Shown one piece after another: positions 36,448-50,265 of a stretch of DNA of 64,000 nt. The position numbers and the translations under genes were made by a program. The notes below the pieces were generated by a model. That model was not told the origin of the DNA and did no database searches. It saw only the letters and a list, made by a program, of their open reading frames with translations. Position 1 is the first letter of the stretch, and every line of letters starts with the position of its first letter. Origin of the DNA: Anaerolineae bacterium (GTDB lineage Bacteria > Chloroflexota > Anaerolineae > B4-G1 > SLSP01); assembly GCA_025454475.1 (NCBI GenBank), contig JALOOJ010000014.1:179-64178 (forward strand), read 5' to 3'.

Positions 36448-38814
36448 CTAGGGCGTGTCTTCCCCGTCTCCCCCCAGCACGACCTGACGGCTGCGGCCAG
36501 CGCTTTCCTGAGGCCCAACCAGACCCATTGTCTCCATCTGCTCCATCAGCCTCGCCGCGCGCGGATAGCTGATGCGAAGGCGACGCTGGATGCCCGATGT
36601 GGAGACCTTGCCATGGGTTCTTGCATAGGTGATTGCCTGTTCGAGGAGGTCCGCGTCCTCGCCAAGTCCCTCAATGCGCCAGTTCTCCGGGCCCTGCGAG
36701 TCAGCCAGCACATCCCATGGCGCTCGCGCCGGGGTTGCGCCAGCTTCCTGCTGCCAGAAGCGGATCAGTGCCTCGAGCTCGTCGTCGGAGATGTAGCATC
36801 CCTGAACCCGGATCGGCGCCGATGCGTCGGGCGGCATAAAGAGCATATCGCCTTGACCGAGGAGTGTCTCGGCGCCAGGTGTGTCAATGATCACGCGCGA
36901 GTCGACGCCACTGGCAGTGGCAAAGCTGATACGGGCCGGGAAGTTGGCTTTGATCAGGCCGGTGACTACGTCGGTGCTGGGACGCTGCGTCGCCACGACG
37001 AGGTGAATACCTGTGGCCCGCGCCATTTGGGCGATGCGCGTAAGCGTTCGCTCGGTCTCCTCGGGCTCCGACATCATCAGATCTGCCAGCTCGTCGATGA
37101 GCACGACGATACGAGGTAGCGGGGCTTCCTCTTCCTCTTCCGCATCGGGCACCGCGCGTCGGCGTGCCAGTCTGGCATTGTACTCGTCGAGGTTGCGCGC
37201 AACGGCCTTGGCGAACAGCTTGTAGCGCTCATCCATCTCATGGGCGACCCAACGGAGCACGCGCAGACCGCGCTCCACGTCCGTTTCAGCGCTCCCCAGG
37301 AGATGGGGGAGCCCGTTGAGGTGGCTGAGCTCCACCATCTTGGGGTCGATGGCGATCAATTTGAGTTCCTCTGGCGTGTTGTGCGCAATCAGGCTCGCGG
37401 CCAGTGCTTTGATGAAGATGGACTTGCCGCTGCCTGTAGTCCCGGCAACCAGCAGATGGGGCATCCTTGATAGATCGGCGACCTGCGGGCTTCCGGCGAC
37501 ATCAAGTCCGATGGCGATGCAGAGCGGGCGACCGCATTTGTGAAACGCATCGCTCTCGAGCAACGACCTGAGCCGAACTGTGGTGATGTCAGCATTGGGT
37601 ACTTCGATCCCCACGACAGCGCGTCCGGGCACTGGTGCTTCGACGCGTAGCGAGCGTGCTGCCAACGCCAGAGCCAGATCGTCGGAAAGCGTGGCGATTT
37701 GGCTGACGCGCACCTTGCGCTGCCGCTCTCCCTCAGTCCCACGGTTAATGTACCCGGGCGAGACGCCAAACTGGGTGACTGTAGGGCCAGGACGCACTTC
37801 GGTGATGCGTGCCGGGACACCAAACTGCTCGAGTGTCTCCTCGATGATGTGGCTCTTACGCTCGATCTCCTGCGGGTCCATCCCGATTGTCTTGGATTCG
37901 CGGAGTAGATCCATAGGGATCATAAGTAGAGCAGATTTAGTGCGTCGGGGCTTTGCGATGGGTTGGGGCTGTCGGATCTTGGGCTTGGCTCGGTTCTGCT
38001 CCATAGGCGGCGCCATCGCCGCAGACCGGCGTCGCGAAATCGGCGAGACGGCGACGCCGGCGGCAGGGCTGTAGCTCTGCGCGTCGCCCAGGGCGTGTCG
38101 GGCATTGACTCGCGCAGTGACCTTGGCTGCTTGGGCTGCACGCCACGCTGACCAGACCTCCGTCAATCGCCCGCCGAAGGCTGCAAGTTCCTTGCCAGTC
38201 AGGTCGAAGACCAGCGCGATACCCAGCAAGGTCATCAGACCCATGAGCAGTCCGGTGATCAGCTTGCCTAGATAGTCGCTCACGAAGAGGTAGAGCCCCC
38301 AACCGATAACACCACCGCCTTTACCCGACTCAATAAGCATCCAGCCAGGCTGATCGATCAAGGCAAAGGTTAGGGCTTGTAGACCAATCAGGGCCAGCTC
38401 GAGGCCCAGAAGGGGGCGCCAGCGCCATGCTGTGGGCTGGTGCACGAGGTGTCGCAGCCACAACAGCCCCGAGGCCACAATCAGGGTCGCCACGGGATAC
38501 GCCGCCCAGCCAAAGGCAAGAACCAAGAAGCGCACCCAAGCGATGACCAAGGCTCCGGAATTGACGCCCGGGATGAGCGTGATAAAGGTTACCGTGCCAA
38601 ATGCGATCAGTGCTAGCGCCAAGACCTGCTGACCAGCAGGCCCCATGAGCCAGGCTCCCAGCCAACGGCTGAGTTTTGCTGGCCACGACTCGGCCAGGGG
38701 CTTGGGCGGTGCGGATGCGCGCGCTGCGGATGAGTGAGGCGCAGGTGTGCGCTGCTGCCTGGTCGTGGCCCCGCTTCGTGGATGGGCCATACGCGCGTAA
38801 CGTCGCTCAGGCAT
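36448..38814 (-). CDS. ftsK: DNA translocase FtsK/SpoIIIE
   Basis: N-terminal TM helices, linker, RecA-like motor (HLLVAGTTGSGKS, VLIDELADLM), gamma domain wHTH. Confidence 0.85.
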   Translation of the reverse strand: MPERRYARMAHPRSGATTRQQRTPAPHSSAARASAPPKPLAESWPAKLSRWLGAWLMGPAGQQVLALALIAFGTVTFITLIPGVNSGALVIAWVRFLVLAFGWAAYPVATLIVASGLLWLRHLVHQPTAWRWRPLLGLELALIGLQALTFALIDQPGWMLIESGKGGGVIGWGLYLFVSDYLGKLITGLLMGLMTLLGIALVFDLTGKELAAFGGRLTEVWSAWRAAQAAKVTARVNARHALGDAQSYSPAAGVAVSPISRRRSAAMAPPMEQNRAKPKIRQPQPIAKPRRTKSALLMIPMDLLRESKTIGMDPQEIERKSHIIEETLEQFGVPARITEVRPGPTVTQFGVSPGYINRGTEGERQRKVRVSQIATLSDDLALALAARSLRVEAPVPGRAVVGIEVPNADITTVRLRSLLESDAFHKCGRPLCIAIGLDVAGSPQVADLSRMPHLLVAGTTGSGKSIFIKALAASLIAHNTPEELKLIAIDPKMVELSHLNGLPHLLGSAETDVERGLRVLRWVAHEMDERYKLFAKAVARNLDEYNARLARRRAVPDAEEEEEAPLPRIVVLIDELADLMMSEPEETERTLTRIAQMARATGIHLVVATQRPSTDVVTGLIKANFPARISFATASGVDSRVIIDTPGAETLLGQGDMLFMPPDASAPIRVQGCYISDDELEALIRFWQQEAGATPARAPWDVLADSQGPENWRIEGLGEDADLLEQAITYARTHGKVSTSGIQRRLRISYPRAARLMEQMETMGLVGPQESAGRSRQVVLGGDGEDTP

Positions 38815-39745
38815 TCTCGACCTCGCTTGTCGCCAGCGCTAGGGCAATCCGGTGTTCGTCAGGCAGAATGTCGAGTATGCGGACGTCGATTGCCTCCCCG
38901 ACAGTGAACATGCTCTGGACATCGTTGCGGCAGCTCGCATCGCCCAGTCCGGAGATGTGAACGAGCCCCTCAATGCCTTCCAGAAGCTCAACGAAAAGCC
39001 CAAAGCGTTCGACACTCGCAACGGATCCTTCGATGACGTCGCCGGGCTTCAGGAGATCATGCACGGTCGCCCAGGGATTGGGCCGCAAGCGCTTGATGCT
39101 CAAGCCAACGCGCTGGTGCTCGAGGTCAACGTTGAGGATCCTGACCTTTACCGACTGTCCAGGGGCGACGAAATCCTGAGGGTGGCGCACGCGTCCCCAG
39201 GAGATCTCAGAGATATGGACCATGCCCTCGAGGGGACCGATATCGACAAAGGCACCAAATGGACGTACGCTGGTGACGATTCCATCGCAGACTGTGCCTA
39301 TACATAACCATGCGGGCCATTCAGTATGCTTTGGCTCACAGTCGGCGACCCGGCGCTCTGAGAGCAGGATCCGGTTACGTGAGGGTTCGACTTCGATGAC
39401 GCAGAAGCGCAGGGTCTTGCCCAGATAGCGCTCAAAGCAACTCTCTCTGGTGTCGGGATCAGCAGGAAACGGATAGGCCACGAGATGGGATGCTGGCACG
39501 AAGCACTCGATGGATTTCCAGTGTGCTATCAGGCCTCCGCGGTTGTAGCTGTCTACAGTGATACTGACAGTGCTGTGGCGATCCTGAAGGTCGCGGGCTT
39601 CATCCCATATCTCGAGAGCCACTGACGGCAACTCGATCCACTCCCATGGCCCTGGGACCTCACCTGTGCTGATCGGCCCCTCCCTAAGGATCGCCTCCCA
39701 GCATGCCTCACAGGGCGGGCAGTACGGCGGAACGTACGACTCCAT
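38807..39745 (-). CDS. S1 RNA-binding domain protein (three S1 repeats) with N-terminal CxxCxxC cluster
   Basis: Repeated S1 motifs (GxV..V..FGAFV.I....G.VHISE). N-terminus YCPPCEACW. Confidence 0.65.
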   Translation of the reverse strand: MESYVPPYCPPCEACWEAILREGPISTGEVPGPWEWIELPSVALEIWDEARDLQDRHSTVSITVDSYNRGGLIAHWKSIECFVPASHLVAYPFPADPDTRESCFERYLGKTLRFCVIEVEPSRNRILLSERRVADCEPKHTEWPAWLCIGTVCDGIVTSVRPFGAFVDIGPLEGMVHISEISWGRVRHPQDFVAPGQSVKVRILNVDLEHQRVGLSIKRLRPNPWATVHDLLKPGDVIEGSVASVERFGLFVELLEGIEGLVHISGLGDASCRNDVQSMFTVGEAIDVRILDILPDEHRIALALATSEVENA

Positions 39746-39793
39746 TCAGCTGATCCTCCTCACCGGCTCTGCAGTCAGTGCACCAGCCGGTCT

Positions 39794-41680
39794 TCAGTCG
39801 GCCGGGGCGTTCTGTGCCTCTTCTTCCATCTCCGTCAGGATATCGGCCAAGCTTTCTATGGCGATCCGCTGTTTGCGGTAGAGGTCGCTCTCGCTGACGG
39901 CCAACCGCATCGCAACCTGTCGCACCCTGTGCCCGCGCAGGAACTTCATTTCCAGGATATTGTACAATAGCCATTCGGGGGCTGTCAACTTCAGCTCGCC
40001 GTCAGGGCGCAATCGCTCAATCGCATTGGCCAGAACCGCCCGCAGGCCTTTCACGGCGTCGCCTTCATAGTCCGAGGCCGCCTGGCGCACCACCTGGAGT
40101 TCGAGGAGTGGGTTGGCCGTCAGACGTGGCCCGCCCCAGTAGTGTGCTAAAGCGTCGTGTACATACTGGGGCAACTCGGGCGACTGTGCCACAGAGAATC
40201 CGACGACGGACTCCCCGCTGTAGCGCATCATCCCACCACGCATTTGAATGTCTCTCAGCTCGGGGAGCAATGGGGCAAACGCTGCGAAGACGATCTGCTG
40301 CAGTCGCCGATCAGCCAAAGCCGCAGATGCCTGCAAGAGCAGCTGGTCAAGACGGTGCTGTTGTTCGGATGTGAGTGGAGTCTCCACGGCTGGGGACCTC
40401 AGCCCGATGAAACCCAGCAAATCGCTGCCCGCCTTGTCGCGCAAGGGGATCACCCAATACCCGTCCCAGCGGATGAAGGCCTCGCCCGACGGATCGGTGT
40501 CGTGTGCTTGTGTGACCTGCGCGAGTTGCAGTGTCGCGATCTCGGCATCGGACATCGACAGGTCACACCAGATATCCCAGCGGAGTTGTCCCTGATCAAG
40601 AATCGCCAGGAAGCCCCCGTTGCTGCGCATGAGCTCGCATACGGCGGCCAGGACGTTTTCCAGGAACTGCTTGAGATCCGCCGTGGTGAGCAGACGTTGG
40701 CTCAGTTCTTGCGCTTGTGTGACCTCACGAGCTCCCTCGCGGTAGAGCATCAGGTCGATCACCGGCTTGAGCAGTTCAACGGCCAACTGCGCCAAGATGA
40801 CGGCAACAGCAAGCGCGACAAGCGAAAGCGTGTACTGCCCCAGACCTAGCAGCGGCTCCAGGGTCAGTCCGACTCCGAATGCGATCAGCGCCACAATCGC
40901 CGTGACAGGGCCGCGTAGGAGGAAGCGCACCATGCGGTGTTTGATGACCCGATCGGGCATCAACGTCCCGAAGAACGCCACGCTGTATGCCACAAGGGCC
41001 AGCATCGCCGCTACCGCGAGGTTACCGGCGATTAGCAAAATCTGCAGAACGCCACTGGAGAGACCTGCGGGCCATCCAGCAAGCAGCAAGTATGGGAAGA
41101 CGCCCATCGCCGGGGCCGCGAAGCCGATGGACAGGTAAGCCATGCGTCTGCGTGCCGTGTGGGTATAGCAGCGTTTCCGGGCAAGGAGAGTCTCACGCAG
41201 TCCCCACAGGGCCACGATGGCGAACAGAAGTGCAAAGGGATAGAAGAGCGGACCCGGTCTGAGGTGGAAAGTGCGGGCCGCCGTAGGGTTGCTTTGCACC
41301 ACCAGATTCGTGGTGAGGGCCAAGATGCTGATGAGGCCACTCAGTACGACGCTTACGGGACGCAACCAGCCGAAGCTGTGATCTCTGACAACCGATAACC
41401 TGATGGCACGAACGAACTCAAGGTAGAGCGACGGTGTGAACGCAATTCCGATCCACTGCAGGCGAAGAAGGCGCTCTGCGTACTCGGGCCCGGCGATATT
41501 CCGCAGCAGCAGATCAGTCAGGTAGGCAACGATAACGCATCCCAGAAGGCCGACGAAGGTACGGGCGACCTGACTGGTCCGGTTGTAGACAAGCAGGTAG
41601 AGCGCGAGCGCCAGTGCGGTCGCGCCGACGCCCGCTGTGAGCACGTCGCTGGCGCGTTCGAGAAAGTGTACCCAATCCAT
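39794..41680 (-). CDS. membrane-bound putative regulator: N-terminal 7TM, GAF-like domain, C-terminal sigma-70 region-4-like HTH
   Basis: About 7 TM helices in the first ~330 aa. GAF-like core (GGFLAILDQGQLRWDIW...LLGFIGLR). C-terminal LYNILEMKFLRGHRVRQVAMRLAVSESDLYRKQRIAIESL resembles sigma70_r4/LuxR-type HTH. Confidence 0.55.
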   Translation of the reverse strand: MDWVHFLERASDVLTAGVGATALALALYLLVYNRTSQVARTFVGLLGCVIVAYLTDLLLRNIAGPEYAERLLRLQWIGIAFTPSLYLEFVRAIRLSVVRDHSFGWLRPVSVVLSGLISILALTTNLVVQSNPTAARTFHLRPGPLFYPFALLFAIVALWGLRETLLARKRCYTHTARRRMAYLSIGFAAPAMGVFPYLLLAGWPAGLSSGVLQILLIAGNLAVAAMLALVAYSVAFFGTLMPDRVIKHRMVRFLLRGPVTAIVALIAFGVGLTLEPLLGLGQYTLSLVALAVAVILAQLAVELLKPVIDLMLYREGAREVTQAQELSQRLLTTADLKQFLENVLAAVCELMRSNGGFLAILDQGQLRWDIWCDLSMSDAEIATLQLAQVTQAHDTDPSGEAFIRWDGYWVIPLRDKAGSDLLGFIGLRSPAVETPLTSEQQHRLDQLLLQASAALADRRLQQIVFAAFAPLLPELRDIQMRGGMMRYSGESVVGFSVAQSPELPQYVHDALAHYWGGPRLTANPLLELQVVRQAASDYEGDAVKGLRAVLANAIERLRPDGELKLTAPEWLLYNILEMKFLRGHRVRQVAMRLAVSESDLYRKQRIAIESLADILTEMEEEAQNAPAD

Positions 41681-41701
41681 AGTTGCGAGAGTCCGCGCGA
41701 T

Positions 41702-42232
41702 CTAACGGATTCGCTGGCGGAAGAAGAGTGCGACTTCCTGGCCCGGCCAGTAAGCATCCTGGAAGCCGCAGAAAACGAAGCGTTGCTTCAGTGCGAAGGC
41801 GATTGCAGGATAGGCTTTCAGTGAGGAGACCAAAACGAGTTGGTTGACGTGCTGCCTGAGACACCATTCCGTGGCACGGGCCAAAAGGGCGGTCGCCATA
41901 CCGTGACGCCGCTCCTCAGGTGCGACCACCAGATCGGTGATCTGGGCTTGTCGCCGGGCCTGGTCGACGTCCAATCCCAGGTAACCGCTGATCTTGCGGT
42001 GCTCTATCGCGACCCAGAACGCGTCACGACGTTGCCACGCCTTGAGCGAGCTTTCATCGGGAGGAGGGGGCTGGATACGCAGCGTGCGGGGAAGATGGAT
42101 CTCACGGAACGACATCCGCCACTCGCCGCCCTCCTGGCGGGTGTCCATCTGCCAGGAGGCATCGGTCTCGTAGGACAGGTCGATGCCGAGACAAGATTCC
42201 CAATCGTCGTCACGGGCAATGCGGACAAGCAC
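41702..42232 (-). CDS. GNAT-family N-acetyltransferase
   Basis: Acetyl-CoA binding motif VVAPEERRHGMATALL. Confidence 0.7.
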   Translation of the reverse strand: MLVRIARDDDWESCLGIDLSYETDASWQMDTRQEGGEWRMSFREIHLPRTLRIQPPPPDESSLKAWQRRDAFWVAIEHRKISGYLGLDVDQARRQAQITDLVVAPEERRHGMATALLARATEWCLRQHVNQLVLVSSLKAYPAIAFALKQRFVFCGFQDAYWPGQEVALFFRQRIR

Positions 42233-42242
42233 AGTACCCTCC

Positions 42243-43034
42243 TTATTCCTCTGCAGCCACGATATTCACCGGGATGACACACGCGGTGGTGTTCCCATAG
42301 ATATCCACCACCACGAGTCGGAAGCGGTAGGGCCCACCAGGTGGGTACCGCGTCGGGTCCGAGATATCCCAGAAGCCCAAGGAACCATTGTCCACGGATG
42401 TGTCGATTTGAGCAACGAAGTTCGGCGTCTCCGATCCCGGGAAGATGACCTCAAAGCGGTAGAATGAGAACGCATTCACGCTTGCTGTGCCGAGGACTTC
42501 GACCACACCCGAGAGATCGCTTCCCGCTGCGGGGAACGTTAACTGAGCGCCGGGACTGGGGCAGTCAGGCTGCAGTGCGGCTTGAGGGACTGCGGTGGAG
42601 AGCGGCAACGGCGTCGGTTCGCCGGCACTCTCTGGGGCAGAGATGATTACGCCCGTCGCAACGGGTCCGCCCGTCGCAACGGGTTGGGTCACCGTGCCCG
42701 AGGCGCTCAGGGGTGGATTCGGCAAGGTGGATCCCGGGGTCAAGGTGAACAGCCCGCTGCTGGGAGTGGGCGAAGCCGTCAGGTCATCTGAAGTCGTCGG
42801 CGCCCAATACATTCGGATGGTGAACACGGTCGCCGCGAGCATAAGAAACAGCAATGTGACGAATCCTGCACGCGCCATACGTTGCTGGTAGACCTCACGT
42901 TCCAAGCTGAACTGCGCCGTGTCTCGTCTGCGCTTCGCGACGATGGCCGAGACCGAATACCCTATGGCGCCGAACAGGCAGATCACGCCGATCCAGATGA
43001 CCTGTCGGCTGAGCCAACTGAGAATAACGCTCAT
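42243..43034 (-). CDS. hypothetical membrane-anchored protein with Pro/Thr/Ser-rich linker and C-terminal beta domain
   Basis: Two N-terminal TM helices, low-complexity PT-rich linker, C-terminal domain with FYRFEV / YRFRLVVVD motifs. Confidence 0.45.
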   Translation of the reverse strand: MSVILSWLSRQVIWIGVICLFGAIGYSVSAIVAKRRRDTAQFSLEREVYQQRMARAGFVTLLFLMLAATVFTIRMYWAPTTSDDLTASPTPSSGLFTLTPGSTLPNPPLSASGTVTQPVATGGPVATGVIISAPESAGEPTPLPLSTAVPQAALQPDCPSPGAQLTFPAAGSDLSGVVEVLGTASVNAFSFYRFEVIFPGSETPNFVAQIDTSVDNGSLGFWDISDPTRYPPGGPYRFRLVVVDIYGNTTACVIPVNIVAAEE

Positions 43035-43888
43035 AGCTCGCTGAGGATGCCCCGCACAAGCAACTCGAGCCGCGGTACCAGGGCAGCGCCGGCCTCGAGT
43101 ACCTCTTCATGGTTGGGTGGTTGGGCCCCCTCTGCTCTCAGGGGCACAGGTTCGCCAACGAGGATGTTGGTGATCCCGGAGAGCCCCAAGACCCGGATTC
43201 CACTATGGCGTGCTGTGATAACTTCCGGCACCGTGGACATCCCCACAGCATCTGCCCCGATGACGCGCAGGAACCTCACATCCGCTGGCGACTCGAAATT
43301 CGGCCCCGCGAGGCAGATATACACGCCTTGTTGGAACGGAATTCCCTCATCCAGCGCGATCTTCCGCGCCAACTCCCGGAGCGCTGGGTCATAGGCGTCA
43401 TTCATGCTGGGGAAACGCGGGCCGAACTGGTCAAGGTTAGGCCCGCGGAGTGGCGTGAGTCCCGCCATCCCGACCAGGTTGATATGGTCACGGATGATCA
43501 TGATTTCACCGGGACGATAGGCCATATTGACGCCACCTGCGGCGTTGGTGACGATGAGGACTTGGATGCCGAGCAAAGCCATAACCCGGATAGGGAACCC
43601 GATCTGCCCCATGCTGTACCCTTCGTAGTAGTGGCTTCTGCCTTGCATTACGACGACTGGCTGTCTCTCCAGCATTCCCACAACCAACCGGCCAGAGTGT
43701 CCCTGTACCGTGGACACGGGGAAGTGCGGGATCTGCCCGAAATCAACGCGGACCGGCATCTCGACTGCATCAGCCAGGGGGCTGAGTCCCGATCCAAGGA
43801 TGAGCCCCACACGAGGGGTCAGGTCCGCGAGCTGTTTGATGGCTGCAGTGGCTTCCTCAAGCATCGCCATTGTGATCAGTGGATCCAT
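43031..43888 (-). CDS. punA: purine nucleoside phosphorylase (PNP-I/PunA; MTAP-related)
   Basis: PNP/MTAP family motifs (LGSGLS, GHSGRLV, VTNAAGGV, STVPEVI). Confidence 0.85.
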   Translation of the reverse strand: MDPLITMAMLEEATAAIKQLADLTPRVGLILGSGLSPLADAVEMPVRVDFGQIPHFPVSTVQGHSGRLVVGMLERQPVVVMQGRSHYYEGYSMGQIGFPIRVMALLGIQVLIVTNAAGGVNMAYRPGEIMIIRDHINLVGMAGLTPLRGPNLDQFGPRFPSMNDAYDPALRELARKIALDEGIPFQQGVYICLAGPNFESPADVRFLRVIGADAVGMSTVPEVITARHSGIRVLGLSGITNILVGEPVPLRAEGAQPPNHEEVLEAGAALVPRLELLVRGILSEL

Positions 43889-43890
43889 AG

Positions 43891-44952
43891 CTACCCTCCA
43901 TCCTTTGCTTCGAAGTGAGCCCGCGGATGTGCTCGATTGTAGGCCTCACGCTTGCGACGGCTAGAGACGTCGGTATAGATCTGGGTTGTCGTAACACTGG
44001 CGTGGCCCAGCAGTTGCTGCACCTCCCGCAGTTCCGCGCCCCCCTCAAGCAGGTGGGTCGCGAACGTGTGCCGTAAGGTGTGGGGCGAAACCCACGCGGG
44101 CAGGCCGGCAGCCTCTGCATAGCGCTGCACGATGAGCCAGAGGCCCTGGCGTGTCAAGCCTTCTCCGGTGCTATTCAGGAATAACGGCAGGTCCGCCAGA
44201 GATTTGCCGTCAGAACGGTTGCCGTCAGACCGTGCCGGATCGTCGAGTCGGTCGGCTCGATAGCCCGTACGCAGCAGCAGGGGACGCCCCACCTGCACGT
44301 ATCGCGCGACGCTCTCCAAAGCCCGCGGATACAGCGGGATGATCCGCTCCTTGCTGCCTTTCCCGAAACAACGTACGGTGCCCGCCTCGCAGTCTACATC
44401 GTGGGGTCGGAGCTGGATGATCTCTGAGGCCCGCATCCCTGCCGCATAGAGCAGCTCAATGAGGGCCCTGTCGCGTAGCTTCGTCGGGCCGTCGTCCGTC
44501 GGAACGGGTCCGCCCGTCAGGATGGGCCGCTCAGGAGTGGTGTCGTCCGTTGGAACGAGTTGCTCAGCTGCAGGGGCAGGGCTGCTCGTCGCACGCAACA
44601 GCCGGTCGATCTGATCTTGGGTCAGCACTTTCGGGAGGCGTTTCTCGGTCTTCGGCTGGTGCAGCCAATCCAGGTATTCAGGGCCGATATCACCCTCGGC
44701 GTAGAGGAACCTAAGGAAGGCACGTGTCGCCGCGATTTTCCGCGCGACTGTCGCGCTGCTGTACCCTTCACGCTGCAGGGCAGCGATGAAGCCATCCAGC
44801 TCTTCCGGAGTCAGGTCCTCCAGCGGGGCATTGAGGTCATCGACAAAGCCCTGAAACTGCTGGAGATCGTGCTCGTATGCGGCCAAAGTGTTGGGCGAAT
44901 ACCCACGCTCGAACCTAAGGTAGTGCAGAAAGCGGCGTCGTTGGGCTTCCAT
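43891..44952 (-). CDS. xerC: tyrosine recombinase XerC/XerD-type
   Basis: N-terminal SAM-like domain (FLHYLRFERGYSPNTLAAYEHDL), catalytic R..HxxR..Y (LRHTFATHLL, TQIYTDV), with low-complexity insertions. Confidence 0.85.
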   Translation of the reverse strand: MEAQRRRFLHYLRFERGYSPNTLAAYEHDLQQFQGFVDDLNAPLEDLTPEELDGFIAALQREGYSSATVARKIAATRAFLRFLYAEGDIGPEYLDWLHQPKTEKRLPKVLTQDQIDRLLRATSSPAPAAEQLVPTDDTTPERPILTGGPVPTDDGPTKLRDRALIELLYAAGMRASEIIQLRPHDVDCEAGTVRCFGKGSKERIIPLYPRALESVARYVQVGRPLLLRTGYRADRLDDPARSDGNRSDGKSLADLPLFLNSTGEGLTRQGLWLIVQRYAEAAGLPAWVSPHTLRHTFATHLLEGGAELREVQQLLGHASVTTTQIYTDVSSRRKREAYNRAHPRAHFEAKDGG

Positions 44953-46229
44953 CAGGGCCTCAAGGTGCGGTGCGTTCTACTTGCGTGTGCGTCGCCTGCT
45001 ATAGCTTGCGATCGTGGGGCTGCCAGAGACCATACTCCCCGCGCGATTTGCTCGGTCGCGAGGGGCCGGGCAAGGGCTCTTGACCTAGCGGCCATCGCGT
45101 GCCGTTCCTCTGGGTGTTCGACGAGGTGTACAACGGCGCGCGCGGCCTGTCGTGGGAATGGTGCCCAGAGCCCGGCGCCATTCTGAACCACGTGGTCGAT
45201 GTTGCCCTCTTCCTGTCCAGGCAGGGCGGCGAAGAGCACCAACGGCAAGCCCGCGACAAATGCCTCCGCGAGTGTGTTGGGTCCAGCTTTGGTCACCAGA
45301 ACGTCCGCGGCTCGCATCCACGCCTCCATATTGCTCACGAACCCCTCAATCTGGACTGTTGCTCTGAAGGGTACAGGTGCGGGCAATTCCAGACGAGCGA
45401 GTTCCTGCTGGAGCGCACGATTGCGGCCGGTGACGACAACCACGTGCATAGAAGCGCTCTGTCGCGCCAACGCACGAACGACGTGTCCCAACGGCCCCAT
45501 ACCATCGCCCCCGCCCACAACCAGCACGACGGGGCGATCCTGCGGTAGGCCGAGTTGGGCGCGGGCTTCGGACTGCGACAAGTCGATCGCCTCGACGAAA
45601 GCACGCCGCGCGGGCATTCCTGTCACATGGATGTGGTCCGGCGCGATGCCCCAGCGCTTGGCGCGCGCCTCGGCAGCCAGGGTGGGCACAAAGTACAGAT
45701 CTGCGCCTGGCACAAACCAGGCGGCGTGTGTGGTGACGAGATCGACTGCGACGATCGCAAAGGGGACCTGCAGCCCCATATGTCGCAAGCTCATCGATAA
45801 TGCATAGTTTGGAACGGGGTGAAAGGAGACGATGACGTCGGCTGGGTGTCGATGTAACAAGCTGCACAGGGCGCTGCGCGTGTACGGCCAGACGATTCTG
45901 GACATCGTCTTGACTAATCTGGCGCCATCGGATAGGTGGAAGCCAACACCCCAGGGGATCCCGTTCAGGCCGACGCATGTCGGATACCATTCGGGGAAGC
46001 GGTCAAAGGGCCACTGGCCCAGCGCAGCGAAGACGTCCAGGAGTTCCACGGTCGCAGCTGCGCCATAGAGCCGTTCCATCTCGCCCTTCACTGCCTGGGC
46101 CGAGGCGCGGTGGCCCCCGCCTGTGTCGGAGAAGAGAAAGACAAAGCGCTTTGGGGCCAAAGGATGTCCGATGCCAGCTGCAGCTTCGCGCAGGGTGTCA
46201 GTCCCCAACGTGAGCGGATGCTTTGTCAT
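44952..46229 (-). CDS. GT28-family glycosyltransferase (MGDG synthase / processive diacylglycerol glycosyltransferase UgtP-like)
   Basis: N-terminal [17 protein letters not shown] motif and C-terminal GT-B domain (VLVVGGGDG...TKAGPNT). Confidence 0.75.
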
Positions 46230-48638: not shown

Positions 48639-48666
48639 TTGACTTTGCGCCTGGGTATGATACAAT
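48639..48666 (+). promoter_or_regulatory. promoter for rpsA-infA (-35 TTGACT 48639-48644, 16-nt spacer, extended -10 TGaTACAAT 48658-48666), followed by a ~70-nt leader containing a small hairpin (ttgcac...gtgcaa)
   Basis: Hexamers read directly in the sequence. Confidence 0.5.
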
Positions 48667-48735: not shown

Positions 48736-50265
48736 TTGGATGTGGACGATTTGATTCATGCCTCTACGCCTTCGGAGTCTGTGGAAAGCCAAGTAGAAGA
48801 GCCCAGTGCTGTGCAGCAAGAGGTTGTGGCTGTGACGCCGGACGTTGCCGAGCCAACTGCTTCGCCTAAGGTGGCTGAAGTGCGAGCCCCGGTTGCTGCG
48901 GCTGTACCCAAAGAGGCAACGGCCTCCTGGGAGGAGCAACTCGAGGAGTCGCTCAATGCCAGTACGATCAAGCGTGGCGAGTTGCGCGAGGGCACCATCC
49001 TCTCTCGCCGTAGCGATGGCTTTGTCGTTGACATTGGGGCCAAGCGTGACGGCTTTGTACCTTTTGAGGATCTTGCAGAAGTCCACGGCCGTGAGTTCAA
49101 CGTGGGTGACTTGGTTCCTGTCGTTGTGGCGCGGTTCCGTGACTCCGATGGCAACGTGGAGCTTTCCATTTCCCAGGCTCTCCTGCAGGAGGACTGGCTC
49201 ATCGCGGAGAGACTTCTTGAGAGCCAGGATGTCTATGAGTCGCGTGTCACAGGGGCTAACCGTGGTGGCTTGACCGTTGAGTTTGGTCGACTTCGTGGTT
49301 TTGTGCCGATGTCGCAGCTCATTGGTTTCAACCGTATTCGTCAACCCGGAGAGCGCCAGCGCCGCCTGGAGGCGATGGTCGACGAGGAGATTCTGCTCAA
49401 AGTCATTGAGGTGAACCGTCGGCGACGCCGGCTGATCTTGTCCCAGCGCGCTGCGGCCAAGGAATGGCGCGCTACGCGGCGTCAGGATTTACTTGAGGAG
49501 CTCGAAGCCGACCAGGTGCGCAGGGGGCGTATCAGCCAGATCACGGACTTTGGCCTCTTTGTGAACCTTGGTGGCATGGATGGGTTGGTGCACATTTCTG
49601 AGCTCTCATGGGGTCGCATCGAGAACCCCAGTGAGGTATATCACGTTGGACAACGAGTCAAGGTCAAGGTTCTCAATATCGACCGAGACCGGCAGCGGAT
49701 CGCGTTGAGCATCAAGGCGCTCGCCCCCGATCCGTGGGAAAGCGTGGTCGAGCGCTACAACATCGGTCGGTTGGTGCAAGGACGTGTGACCCAGGTTGTG
49801 GACTTCGGCGTCTTCATTGAGCTTGAGCCGGGCGTTGAGGGTTTGCTGCACAACTCCGAGTTGCGTGACGTCGCGCAGCGTGAAGATATGGTCTCCGGTG
49901 AGGCCGTGTTGGTGAAGGTAATTCGGGTTGAGTCGGACCGGCGCCGCATCGGTTTGAGCGTTCGCCAGGTGCGTCCCGAAGAGTGGGAGGAATGGGCGCT
50001 CGCTCAGATCGCCGAGGAGCAGGTCGCCCCGTCCGAGGATGACGGTGACGAAGACGTCGAGGATGATCTCGATTTTGGCGATGTCAGCACGCATCCGAGT
50101 GCTGATATCGGTGCTGGTGCCGCTGCTGATGAAGGCCTCGACGACGAAGATGCCGAAGAGGATTTTGGTGTCGATGAGGGTGACAACGCTGACGAAGACG
50201 TCATTGACGATGTCGTCGAGGGTGACAAGATCAGTAATGTAGACAGTATGGAGTCGGAAGGTTAG
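48736..50265 (+). CDS. rpsA: 30S ribosomal protein S1 (four S1 domains, long acidic D/E-rich C-terminal tail)
   Basis: Four S1 repeats (GxV..V..FG.FV.LG...GL.HISE...). Start codon TTG 48736 or GTG 48742. Confidence 0.85.

Follow-up and report, generated by a model that had tools for sequence, protein, structure and literature searches.

A nine-helix HisKA_7TM-type membrane protein of the Anaerolineae with a GAF-like domain and a C-terminal sigma-70 region 4-like module: a candidate one-component transcription regulator

The window analyzed was a stretch of 64,000 nucleotides from an Anaerolineae bacterium, and all positions given below refer to it. Positions 39794..41680 on the minus strand encode a protein of 628 amino acids with the order nine transmembrane (TM) helices, GAF-like domain, long helix, and sigma-70 region 4-like (sigma-4-like) module. 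A preliminary description had placed a gene at this position, and the open reading frame list and hundreds of full-length homologues confirmed that it is genuine; its start is kept as ATG-GAY-TGG (M-D-W) among the homologues. The protein is identical to the NCBI entry [quoted passage not shown] and is called MUF84_03060 here. The neighbors named in that description, a GNAT gene and an S1-domain gene, were both recovered by Pfam. The GNAT acetyltransferase gene is located upstream (41702..42232, minus strand; Acetyltransf_1, E = 1.7e-12), separated by 21 bp here and by a median of about 23 bp in the family, and adjoins the MUF84_03060 gene in 73 of 86 loci; both genes are probably cotranscribed. 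Downstream, the gene for an RNA-binding protein with three S1 domains (38807..39745, minus strand; Pfam S1, E = 9e-41) begins after 48 bp and is followed by the gene for FtsK (36448-38814), an order conserved in most loci. The family resides in a fixed block, XerD-PNP-hypothetical-GNAT-MUF84_03060-S1-FtsK, the order of which is also conserved in most loci, with one copy of the MUF84_03060 gene within the approximately 10-kb regions examined. Footprinting of the GNAT-MUF84_03060 and MUF84_03060-S1 spacers revealed Shine-Dalgarno sites and lineage-specific heptamer repeats but no shared operator.

A total of 627 homologues were found, and the closest 120 of them were 53 to 100% identical, nearly all full-length and about 620 to 650 residues long. 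At least 474 species genomes contain the family, and nearly all of them are labeled Anaerolineae or Chloroflexota. In a search of representative sequences, the best 150 matches all belonged to the same family, followed by about 1,350 weaker matches (E = 1e-10 to 1e-3). The domain order was the same in all full-length relatives, and a set of 63 diverse members (24 to 52% identity) was used for the family-wide tests. In public annotation, the homologues are labeled either “hypothetical” or “histidine kinase N-terminal 7TM domain-containing protein,” which leaves the output domain invisible to databases. Pfam and NCBIfam searches with the single sequence of MUF84_03060 gave HisKA_7TM and GAF_2 only below threshold and no helix-turn-helix (HTH) call. 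The AF2 models used below were of moderate confidence (pLDDT 74 and 77).

The membrane domain comprises residues 13 to 307 (40760..41644, minus strand). Hydropathy, the helices of the AF2 model, and the family-wide charge statistics of the loops agreed on nine TM helices, with the N terminus outside and the C terminus inside according to the positive-inside rule applied to the 63 diverse sequences. The mean number of K plus R per loop was 1.6, 3.9, 5.1, and 3.5 for the inside loops versus 0.6, 0.6, 1.2, 0.3, and 0.3 for the outside loops. The outer loops are short, 7 to 19 residues, and the cytoplasmic loops are basic and conserved, with RRRM at positions 177 to 180 and PDRVxKxR...LLRGP at positions 242 to 258. 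About seven HisKA_7TM-like helices had been expected; the membrane region and its HisKA_7TM-like character stood up to this analysis, but the number had to be raised to nine. The match to HisKA_7TM (PF16927) covers residues 20 to 209 (41054..41623, minus strand) and profile positions 7 to 198 of 224, with 26.9 bits in MUF84_03060 compared to a gathering cutoff of 28.6. It was matched by 47 of the 63 diverse members, with a best E value of 1.7e-15, and PF16927 was precomputed on most of the close homologues. Judged by these profile matches, the family belongs to HisKA_7TM, with MUF84_03060 itself just below the cutoff. The first seven of the nine helices are of the HisKA_7TM type, and two extra helices follow.

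Residues 333 to 437 (40370..40684, minus strand) form a GAF-like alpha/beta domain, as had been suspected from the sequence. GAF_2 reached only a subthreshold 19.2 bits in MUF84_03060 alone, but GAF_2, GAF, and GAF_3 matched 21, 17, and 12 of the 63 members, respectively, with a best E value of 1.3e-7. A PDB profile search matched the GAF domain of 6oap (E = 0.0022), and Foldseek retrieved the GAF domains of DosS, DosT, and 3cit with a probability of 1.0 and a TMt of about 0.55. Both a GAF profile match and the alpha/beta fold are therefore present. A continuous helix of 48 residues in the AF2 secondary structure (residues 438 to 485; 40226..40369, minus strand) joins the GAF domain to the output module. 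By analogy to GAF and S-helix proteins, this may be a signaling or dimerization helix. It is followed by a linker of low confidence (residues 486 to 502; 40175..40225, minus strand), which is less conserved, with a column identity of about 0.65; the pLDDT was below 50 at positions 478 to 480 and 482 to 495.

The output module is a helical region of 130 residues that ends in a sigma-70 region 4-type HTH, and it is the most conserved part of the protein. It starts with an N-terminal helical extension (residues 503 to 540; 40061..40174, minus strand), which carries the motif A510-L-x-H-Y-W515-G-G-P-x-L-T-x-x-P-L525 and is without a counterpart in the sigma-4 alignment. A510, W515, G516, G517, and L525 are invariant in the 63 sequences, which are only 24 to 52% identical. 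The sigma-70 region 4-like domain proper (residues 541 to 615; 39836..40060, minus strand) was identified by Foldseek, hhalign, PHROG, and weak Pfam matches. Its predicted HTH consists of a helix at positions 586 to 592 and a recognition helix from position 597 (SESDLYRKQR). Thirteen residues are invariant in the whole protein, among them S596, R602, K603, and A607, which fall within the predicted recognition helix, together with five from the adjacent HYWGGP motif, as expected for an output domain with a fixed macromolecular target.

Four independent routes support a sigma-70 region 4 fold, including the HTH, of this module. The best-ranked Foldseek matches in the PDB were almost all sigma-4 domains (SigL, SigD, sigma-E, and SigR; TMt 0.65 to 0.77, root mean square deviation 2 to 3 Å), including sigma-E region 4 bound to −35 DNA, with weak E values of 0.085 or higher; sigma-4 in complex with anti-sigma factors (RslA, RsdA, RsbN, and FlgM) was also found, as were PhyR-type mimics, which scored poorly. 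In BFVD, Foldseek matched the whole 130-residue module to small phage sigma-like proteins and activators. A comparison by hhalign with a profile of six Escherichia coli sigma-4 domains gave a P value of 1.4e-5 and a score of 33.5, while 40 shuffled controls and the reversed controls all scored 17.5 or less; against the single sigma-E sequence, the right region was aligned with an E value of 0.45, so that significance was reached only with diverse profiles on both sides. The PHROG transcription-regulator families 36 and 248 matched 28 of 28 members with E values around 1e-6 (3.4e-6 and 5.7e-6, and down to 2e-7), and a PHROG with the annotation “RNA polymerase sigma factor” matched 22 of the 28. 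DUF1492, Sigma70_r4_2, Sigma70_r4, and Sigma70_ECF yielded only weak, subthreshold Pfam matches to the module, no HTH exceeded the Pfam threshold in searches with MUF84_03060 or the family, and the PDB sequence profile HMM searches (A1, A2, and A3) retrieved GAF domains but neither sigma-4 nor an HTH. The C-terminal segment nevertheless scores significantly as an HTH with PHROG and hhalign. A tblastn search of plasmids resulted only in matches with an E value of 0.1 to Clostridioides difficile “sigma-70 family” genes, and the 850 kb of Anaerolineae DNA that was fetched contained no remote copies of the module.

These results also decided which known classes are not represented here. An HTH resembling either sigma-70 region 4 or LuxR had been suggested; the former was borne out, but GerE (PF00196) was missing from all Pfam match lists even at E values up to 10, and an assignment as a LuxR/GerE-type regulator was rejected. 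The profile comparisons proposed at that time thus gave GAF at the level of the family, Sigma70_r4_2 below threshold only, and no GerE. HisKA, HATPase_c, and receiver domains were found neither in MUF84_03060 nor among the 25 commonest Pfam families of the 63 members, as predicted, and all homologues end in the HTH module, which rejects a sensor histidine kinase. Sigma70_r2 was likewise absent from MUF84_03060 and from these 25 families, and the hhalign and Foldseek matches concerned region 4 only; without region 2 in the polypeptide, the protein cannot be a complete sigma-70 family sigma factor. Neither BAT (PF15915) nor HTH_10 (PF04967) appeared in the Pfam results for MUF84_03060 or the family, excluding a Bat-type GAF-BAT-HTH_10 regulator. 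A ToxR-like receptor was rejected because of the nine TM helices, the C-terminal sigma-4-type HTH, outer loops of not more than 19 residues, and the lack of a Trans_reg_C match in the Pfam searches with MUF84_03060 or the family.

The 3′ part of the gene contains a second feature. A consensus scan (11 of 12 positions) and selection at synonymous sites indicated an embedded sigma-70-type promoter, TTGACA-18 nt-TACAAT (39959..39988, minus strand), which is spelled within codons 565 to 574, with the hexamers in L565-T566 and Y573-N574, about 215 nt upstream of the start of the S1 gene. The synonymous-site analysis took in 84 genes, and TTGACA-18-TACAAT was kept in 59 of 74 genes versus 0.7% expected, with the constraint around the site confined to the two hexamers. 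Its distribution is all-or-none and complementary to that of promoters in the spacer. Rfam gave no match in the implied leader of the S1 gene. This pattern in the sequences means that the site is probably an internal promoter for S1-FtsK, and it suggests that S1-FtsK form a separate transcription unit. The extreme conservation of LTAPEWLLYN would consequently act partly on the DNA, and the site would be a natural example of dual coding, in which a peptide motif and a predicted promoter share the same 30 nt.

To our knowledge, membrane-anchored DNA-binding sensors are rare in published censuses of one-component systems, and almost every known example combines a single TM helix with a periplasmic sensor. 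ToxR and CadC bind DNA from the membrane (PMC7888679, PMC6320335). They resemble MUF84_03060 in combining sensor and output, which would also bind DNA in MUF84_03060, in one membrane protein without a phosphorelay; but their HTH is N-terminal and of the winged OmpR type, they have only one TM helix, and their sensor is periplasmic. MUF84_03060, in contrast, spans the membrane with nine helices, lacks a periplasmic domain, and carries GAF in the cytoplasm and a sigma-4-type HTH at the C terminus, so that its polarity is reversed and its fold is not the same. SusR/BguR of the Bacteroidota are composed of sensor, membrane segment, alpha-helical linker, and C-terminal HTH, without HisKA, HATPase, or REC (bioRxiv 10.64898/2026.01.10.698779), which is the same order of parts and the same lack of these domains as in MUF84_03060. 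They differ in their single TM helix, in sensing glycans with a large periplasmic beta-propeller or TPR domain, in a match to GerE, and in a location next to the regulated PUL, compared to a polytopic protein of another phylum with a GAF domain, without a GerE match, and in a housekeeping block. The GerE HTH of BguR and sigma-4 both fall into one broad class of helical HTH domains. Sensors of the ChiS family are embedded in the membrane and bind DNA themselves, and in some architectures the 7TM receptor module 7TMR-DISM comes first (PMC8092284), but they carry histidine kinase and receiver domains between the sensor and a different, cryptic HTH, while MUF84_03060 is without phosphotransfer domains. 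The earlier rating of the architecture as uncommon is fair, although CadC/ToxR, SusR/BguR, and ChiS provide precedents for DNA binders in the membrane. No paper on an architecture of nine TM helices, GAF, and sigma-4-like HTH turned up in the literature searches.

The components have their own relatives. We know of no ligand for the HisKA_7TM module. In kinases of bacteria and archaea, it is recognized as a sensor module (PMC5847659), and these kinases share the homologous N-terminal 7TM bundle; in MUF84_03060, an HTH replaces HisKA plus HATPase_c, and two more TM helices follow the 7TM core. The last 75 residues resemble sigma-4 of ECF factors and the phage sigma-like activators (PHROG 36/248 and DUF1492) in fold and profile, and the 130-residue module resembles small phage sigma-like proteins in size and shape. 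Compared to sigma-4, an 11-residue insertion (K564-L-T-A-P-E-W-L-L-Y) extends the helix before the HTH, and compared to sigma-4 and the phage proteins, there is no region 2, a unique HYWGGP motif upstream, and the fusion to a membrane sensor. CodY joins a GAF sensor directly to its DNA-binding HTH. The same applies to the haloarchaeal Bat-type GAF-BAT-HTH_10 proteins (PMC5847659). Both types are soluble, whereas MUF84_03060 is embedded in the membrane and has no BAT or HTH_10 signal.

Taking domain order, topology, sigma-4 homology, the missing kinase, receiver, and sigma region 2 domains, class-wide conservation, and fixed synteny together, all of which derive from sequences and models, MUF84_03060 is best read as a membrane-integrated one-component transcription regulator, with a probability of roughly 0.55 that also covers the presumed DNA binding, signal, and targets. 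The nine-helix domain, in which two helices supplement a HisKA_7TM-type bundle and extracellular loops are nearly absent, and the cytoplasmic GAF-like domain would be the sensor, reading a signal within the membrane, a cytoplasmic small molecule, or both. Helix 438-485 would form a parallel dimer and pass a conformational change to the output, the 130-residue module with its sigma-70 region 4-like last 75 residues. Its recognition helix, S596-E-S-D-L-Y-R602-K603-Q-R, would bind a specific DNA site and thereby control a regulon; because the recognition-helix residues are invariant, this site may be common to the whole family. No phosphotransfer would be involved, and the protein probably stays anchored in the membrane during its action, as do CadC, ToxR, SusR/BguR, and ChiS. 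Speaking against this model, the gene is located in a housekeeping block with no obvious regulated operon adjoining, an unusual setting for a one-component sensor; the HYWGGP motif, although invariant, is unaccounted for; and no DNA target emerged, with no conserved operator in the flanking spacers and synonymous-site constraint near the embedded promoter restricted to its hexamers. The subthreshold Pfam scores of the HTH, the lack of sigma-4 among the PDB sequence profile matches, the weak Foldseek E values, and the moderate confidence of the AF2 models also count against it.

The sigma-4-like module may bind a protein instead of DNA, such as the beta-flap of RNA polymerase, an anti-sigma factor, or an activator, which would make MUF84_03060 a membrane-tethered decoy or the region 4 half of a split sigma factor with region 2 elsewhere. 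Two-subunit sigma factors do exist, as in SigO-RsoA of Bacillus subtilis, and the Foldseek matches to sigma-4/anti-sigma complexes and PhyR-type mimics, the matches of the entire module to small phage sigma-like proteins, and the sigma-factor PHROG in 22 of 28 members are all compatible with this, as is an invariant HYWGGP serving as a protein-binding surface. This reading is nevertheless unlikely: the protein has no sigma region 2, the DNA flanking 86 loci, 850 kb in all, contained no sigma-70-family or anti-sigma gene, the PhyR-type matches score poorly, and the invariant basic residues belong to the predicted recognition helix, with which sigma-4 contacts DNA. Equally improbable is a latent precursor, from which, upon a signal, cleavage in the linker (residues 478 to 502) or in the juxtamembrane segment would free a soluble sigma-4-like module, with or without GAF, for action on DNA in the cytoplasm. 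The segment between the long helix and the output is indeed of low confidence and less conserved (pLDDT below 50, conservation about 0.65), and a model of proteolytic activation has been published for CadC (PMC11484849); but no recognizable cleavage motif was seen and nothing specific speaks in favor, and across the loci the block has no conserved protease gene, a rhomboid gene being near some loci (L005) only.

The class-wide fixed synteny with a XerC/D-type recombinase and FtsK, and the core gene-like occurrence in one copy per approximately 10-kb region examined, as opposed to an expanded sensor family, would also fit a structural tether between chromosome and membrane or a division or nucleoid-positioning factor, which holds a chromosomal site with FtsK and XerD and does not respond to signals. 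The chances for this are lower still: long conserved gene blocks are common and do not necessarily imply a shared function, the embedded promoter suggests a separate transcription unit for S1-FtsK, and a conserved bundle of nine TM helices plus GAF would be a costly anchor if nothing were sensed. Hardly any weight is left for a truncated or decayed histidine kinase, resulting from a pseudogene or misassembly and with a fortuitous likeness to an HTH, although the N-terminal family owes its name to histidine kinases and some homologues carry a corresponding NCBI label. Hundreds of homologues share the same end and length, the C-terminal 130 residues are the most conserved, HisKA and HATPase_c are missing from MUF84_03060 and the 25 commonest families of the 63 members, and the S1 gene starts 48 bp downstream. 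Purifying selection on the C-terminal module across at least 474 species genomes refutes this explanation.

Anaerobic digesters, sediments, and hot springs harbor abundant Anaerolineae, a class that is genetically almost unexplored. Under the preferred reading as a one-component regulator, the family joins a polytopic 7TM-type receptor and GAF directly to a sigma-4-type HTH in a syntenic core gene of the whole class. A far-reaching variant, which we regard as a rather long shot, is that the sigma-4-like module recognizes a −35-like element, its own embedded TTGACA-18-TACAAT, either as such or as the region 4 half of a split, membrane-tethered sigma factor, and couples the state of the membrane or envelope to transcription of S1-FtsK in filamentous Anaerolineae. 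If this were true, it would be a class-wide bacterial shortcut from a 7TM receptor to genes for RNA binding and chromosome segregation. A profile built from MUF84_03060 could annotate hundreds of proteins, and the family offers a test case for HisKA_7TM signaling.

The domain order of the 628-aa protein is that of a candidate one-component system, in which nine transmembrane (TM) helices and a GAF-like domain would serve as the sensor, a long helix as the transmission element and a predicted DNA-binding module as the output, all without phosphotransfer. A probability of about 0.55 was assigned to this reading. The gene, 39794..41680 on the minus strand, had exactly the extent given in the preliminary description. 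A search of 5.8 billion proteins yielded 627 relatives; the best 120 of them were 53-100% identical to the target, and nearly all of these were full-length with about 620-650 aa. The identical database entry, encoded on a contig of 64 kb, is NCBI [quoted passage not shown]. The start context ATG-GAY-TGG (M-D-W) was kept across the loci, and the open reading frame is a real gene.

Hydropathy and an AlphaFold2 (AF2) model built on 84 homologues (pLDDT 74) both placed nine long hydrophobic helices in the region of residues 13-307; the proposed membrane sensor was thus retained, but not its number of about seven helices. In 63 diverse members, which share only 24-52% identity with the target, loops 1, 3, 5, and 7 contained on average 1.6, 3.9, 5.1, and 3.5 Lys plus Arg residues, their net charge ranging from +1.1 to +5.0, and the N-terminus and loops 2, 4, 6, and 8 contained 0.3-1.2 with a negative net charge. 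Because the loop charges alternate, the positive-inside rule predicts an external N-terminus and a cytoplasmic location of the C-terminal 320 residues. The outer loops comprise 7-19 residues, which indicates that there is no extracytoplasmic sensor domain. Pfam HisKA_7TM covered residues 20-209 of the target with 26.9 bits at a cut-off of 28.6, and 47/63 members matched (best E 1.7e-15), so that helices 1-7 are predicted to be a HisKA_7TM-type bundle followed by two more helices.

The GAF-like segment that had been proposed was recovered at the family level. Residues 333-437 form an alpha/beta unit with a sub-threshold Pfam match to GAF_2 (19.2 bits) in the target, and GAF_2, GAF, and GAF_3 were matched by 21, 17, and 12 of the 63 members (best E 1.3e-7). 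PDB entries with GAF domains were matched by the family profile (6oap, E 0.0022), and Foldseek aligned the domain with the GAF domains of DosS, DosT, and 3cit (probability 1.0, TM score about 0.55). In the AF2 model, a single 48-residue helix (438-485) exits this domain, followed by a less conserved, poorly modelled linker up to about residue 502.

No other part of the protein is as well conserved as residues 503-624, which are all-helical in the AF2 model and have a column identity of 0.8-0.98 among close homologues. Nine of the 13 invariant residues of the diverse alignment (A510, W515, G516, G517, L525, L593, S596, R602, and K603) are located in this output module, as are P559 and A607. Pfam gave no call for the module in the target, and profile searches of PDB sequences gave no match. 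The commonest sub-threshold Pfam matches of the individual members were all of one kind: DUF1492 (28/63), Sigma70_r4_2 (19/63), Sigma70_r4 (7/63), and Sigma70_ECF (4/63). Residues 492-628 were also modelled on their own with AF2 (pLDDT 77); in a Foldseek comparison of this model with the PDB, almost all top ranks were sigma-70 region-4 domains, among them SigL and SigD of M. tuberculosis, region 4 of E. coli sigma-E on -35 DNA, SigR, SigF, sigma-28, and BldN, with target-normalised TM scores of 0.65-0.77 and an rmsd of 2-3 A over about 70 columns, albeit with weak E values of at least 0.085. In a comparison with predicted viral structures, the entire module was matched, in alignments of 120-140 columns, by small phage proteins with the names "Sigma70," "ECF sigma factor," or "transcriptional activator." In hhalign, the diverse family profile was compared with a profile of the region-4 segments of six sigma-70-family sigma factors from the annotated E. 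coli K-12 genome; residues 541-609 were in register with regions 4.1-4.2 (probability 80%, P 1.4e-5, score 33.5, versus at most 17.5 for 40 column-shuffled templates and 11.5 for the reversed template). Residues 572-623 matched phrog_36 (E 3.4e-6; best E 1.8e-7) and phrog_248 (E 5.7e-6; best E 6.6e-7), both of the category "transcription regulation," in 28/28 members, and 22/28 matched a PHROG annotated as RNA polymerase sigma factor. These four lines, PDB structures, viral structures, hhalign, and PHROG, settle the assignment of a predicted sigma-70 region-4-like helix-turn-helix (HTH) to the module. The predicted HTH consists of helix 586-592 and a helix starting at 597 (S-E-S-D-L-Y-R-K-Q-R), and the helix preceding it is lengthened by an 11-residue insertion relative to sigma-E in the hhalign alignment.

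No HisKA, HATPase_c, receiver, Sigma70_r2, GerE, BAT, or HTH_10 match was obtained for the target or among the 25 commonest families of the 63 members. The proposed absence of kinase and receiver was therefore confirmed; of the two HTH types suggested, sigma-70 region 4 stood and LuxR did not. As far as sequence analysis reaches, the earlier interpretation was supported. The piece of the protein with the strongest conservation is the segment of residues 503-540 (40061-40174, minus strand), upstream of and outside the sigma-4-like fold, with the invariant motif HYWGGPxLTxxPLL and five of the 13 family-wide invariant residues; the motif has no counterpart in sigma factors and matches nothing known.

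An exhaustive search of 1.84 billion representatives with an HMM of the output module yielded 155 proteins at E 1e-30 or better, besides about 1,350 weaker matches. All 150 listed of the 155 belonged to the target family; they were either fragments or full-length proteins (about 620-704 aa) that end in the module, which agrees with the proposed domain order. When each species was represented by a single genome, 474 loci encoding the module were counted. The 80 listed of these were labelled Anaerolineae or Chloroflexota (Anaerolineales, Thermoflexales/Thermoflexus), except for one "uncultured Chloroflexia" pair and one "Campylobacteraceae" MAG. The contig of the latter (locus L076, JALWPZ010000089.1) carries a typical family member, and its label is probably a binning error because the distribution is otherwise exclusively Chloroflexota. 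No second copy or remote paralogue was found in 850 kb of flanking DNA.

The gene is part of a co-directional, tightly packed, class-wide block (36448-46229, minus strand; also in loci L003-L086), which contains guanylate kinase, DUF951, and MGDG-synthase-like glycosyltransferase genes, and in the order XerC/D-type recombinase, purine-nucleoside phosphorylase, a membrane protein of about 260 aa, GNAT, target, S1 protein, and FtsK. All of this order was present in 45 loci, and most others of the 86 showed parts of it; genes of the block frequently overlap by 1-4 nt. The flanking genes were those expected, a GNAT acetyltransferase (41702-42232, minus; Acetyltransf_1, E 1.7e-12) and a three-S1-domain protein (38807-39745, minus; Pfam S1, E 9e-41). 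The conserved 263-aa protein (42243-43034, minus), always two genes upstream of the target, has no Pfam or NCBIfam match; it displays hydrophobic N-terminal segments and a linker rich in Pro, Ser, and Thr, and its C-terminal domain has no recognised fold. The S1-domain protein, with only three S1 domains and a Cys-rich N-terminus (CPPCEACW), scored far under all NCBIfam cut-offs for ribosomal protein S1 and probably represents an RNA-binding protein distinct from it. Since the median gap between the GNAT and target genes is about 23 bp, their co-transcription is suggested.

A consensus scan revealed a promoter-like element of the sigma-70 type, TTGACA-18 nt-TACAAT (39988 to 39959, minus; 11/12), on the coding strand of the target gene. 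It coincides with codons L565-T566 and Y573-N574 in the most conserved peptide, K-LTAPEWLLYN. Codon usage in 84 non-identical homologous genes was compared with conserved columns of the same amino acid. TTG was used at Leu565 in 82% (mean 21%, maximum 47% in 87 other Leu columns), ACA at Thr566 in 71% (12%, 19%; 10 columns), TAC at Tyr573 in 95% (61%, 77%; 15 columns), and AAT at Asn574 in 79% (41%, 60%; 7 columns). The full motif was present in 59/74 genes, versus 0.7% predicted from gene-wide codon usage. Shared ancestry does not explain this retention, because the six spacer codons between the hexamers are saturated at synonymous sites (e.g., GCT 28, GCA 27, GCC 14, GCG 9). Codons 572, 565, and 566 ranked 1-3 of 292 columns in divergence from gene-wide usage, and no synonymous constraint was found in these columns past the hexamers and their immediate flanks.

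The element was all-or-none, with 12/12 positions in 58 loci, 11/12 in none, and 10/12 or fewer in 25. The median target-S1 spacer was 73 nt with the element versus 174 nt without it, and promoter-like sites of at least 10/12 occurred in 0/51 spacers with it versus 4/20 without it (Fisher's exact test, p about 0.005), one of the four being a perfect TTGACA-17-TATAAT in locus L075. The element is complementary to promoters in the downstream spacer. It precedes the S1 start codon by about 215 nt and is probably an internal promoter for S1-FtsK kept by synonymous-site selection; the target gene would therefore be the last of its transcription unit, and a new unit would start with S1-FtsK. Rfam gave no known RNA element in the implied S1 leader. 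A near-consensus TTGACT-16-TACAAT with an upstream TG (48639-48666, plus), about 70 nt ahead of an ORF starting at 48736, shares the TACAAT variant of the -10 site.

Because the outer loops are minimal, sensing would probably take place inside the bilayer, where lipids, compounds soluble in the membrane, or its physical state may be the stimulus; a ligand bound by the GAF domain in the cytoplasm is an alternative. The analogy with other GAF and signalling-helix proteins suggests that helix 438-485 may form a parallel dimer, which would determine how two sigma-4-like HTH units are placed towards each other. The invariance of residues in the predicted recognition helix speaks for a single DNA target shared by the whole family. 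Footprinting of the loci found no operator in the spacers neighbouring the target gene. In several Anaerolineae genomes, longer spacers are filled by tandem repeats with a period of about 7 nt (GACTTTG/GACATTG..., AACGTTC..., ACGCATT..., CAGGATGCAAGAG...), located on either side of the target gene in L012, L016, L018, L021, L024 (3378-3527), L027, L029, L045, and L056 (target-S1 spacer). They resemble the heptameric STRR repeats of cyanobacteria and are not a shared operator, since the repeat unit varies between lineages.

CadC was shown to act from the membrane (PMC7888679, PMC6320335), BguR and SusR have been proposed to do so (bioRxiv 10.64898/2026.01.10.698779), and the target may act likewise. 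Signal, dimer, DNA target, and membrane action are all what we infer. It is unlikely that proteolysis releases the output module instead. Equally doubtful is that the module mimics sigma-4, or supplies region 4 as one half of a split sigma factor, and binds RNA polymerase or an anti-sigma-like partner, not DNA. The neighbouring XerD and FtsK genes would fit a structural tether between chromosome and membrane, which is more improbable still. A decayed histidine kinase was rejected because the conservation of the protein contradicts it, leaving this reading next to no probability.

The one-component reading resembles the membrane-integrated one-component regulators, but the protein belongs to no described family of them. 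In ToxR and CadC, the winged HTH is N-terminal, and there are a single TM helix and a periplasmic sensor, in contrast to nine TM helices and a C-terminal sigma-4-like HTH; SusR and BguR combine one TM helix and a periplasmic glycan sensor with a GerE HTH, for which the target has no match. CodY is a soluble GAF-HTH fusion, and to our knowledge such fusions are known solely as soluble proteins. Bat-type GAF-HTH fusions are soluble, and histidine kinases are known to use HisKA_7TM for sensing (PMC5847659). The ChiS family includes some 7TMR-DISM architectures with another DNA-binding domain but retains kinase and receiver (PMC8092284), both absent here. In the literature searched, no description of a HisKA_7TM-type 9TM, GAF, and sigma-4-like combination was found; the preliminary description had called the architecture uncommon. 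The protein has an unusual architecture that is conserved class-wide and an output domain without annotation in public databases.
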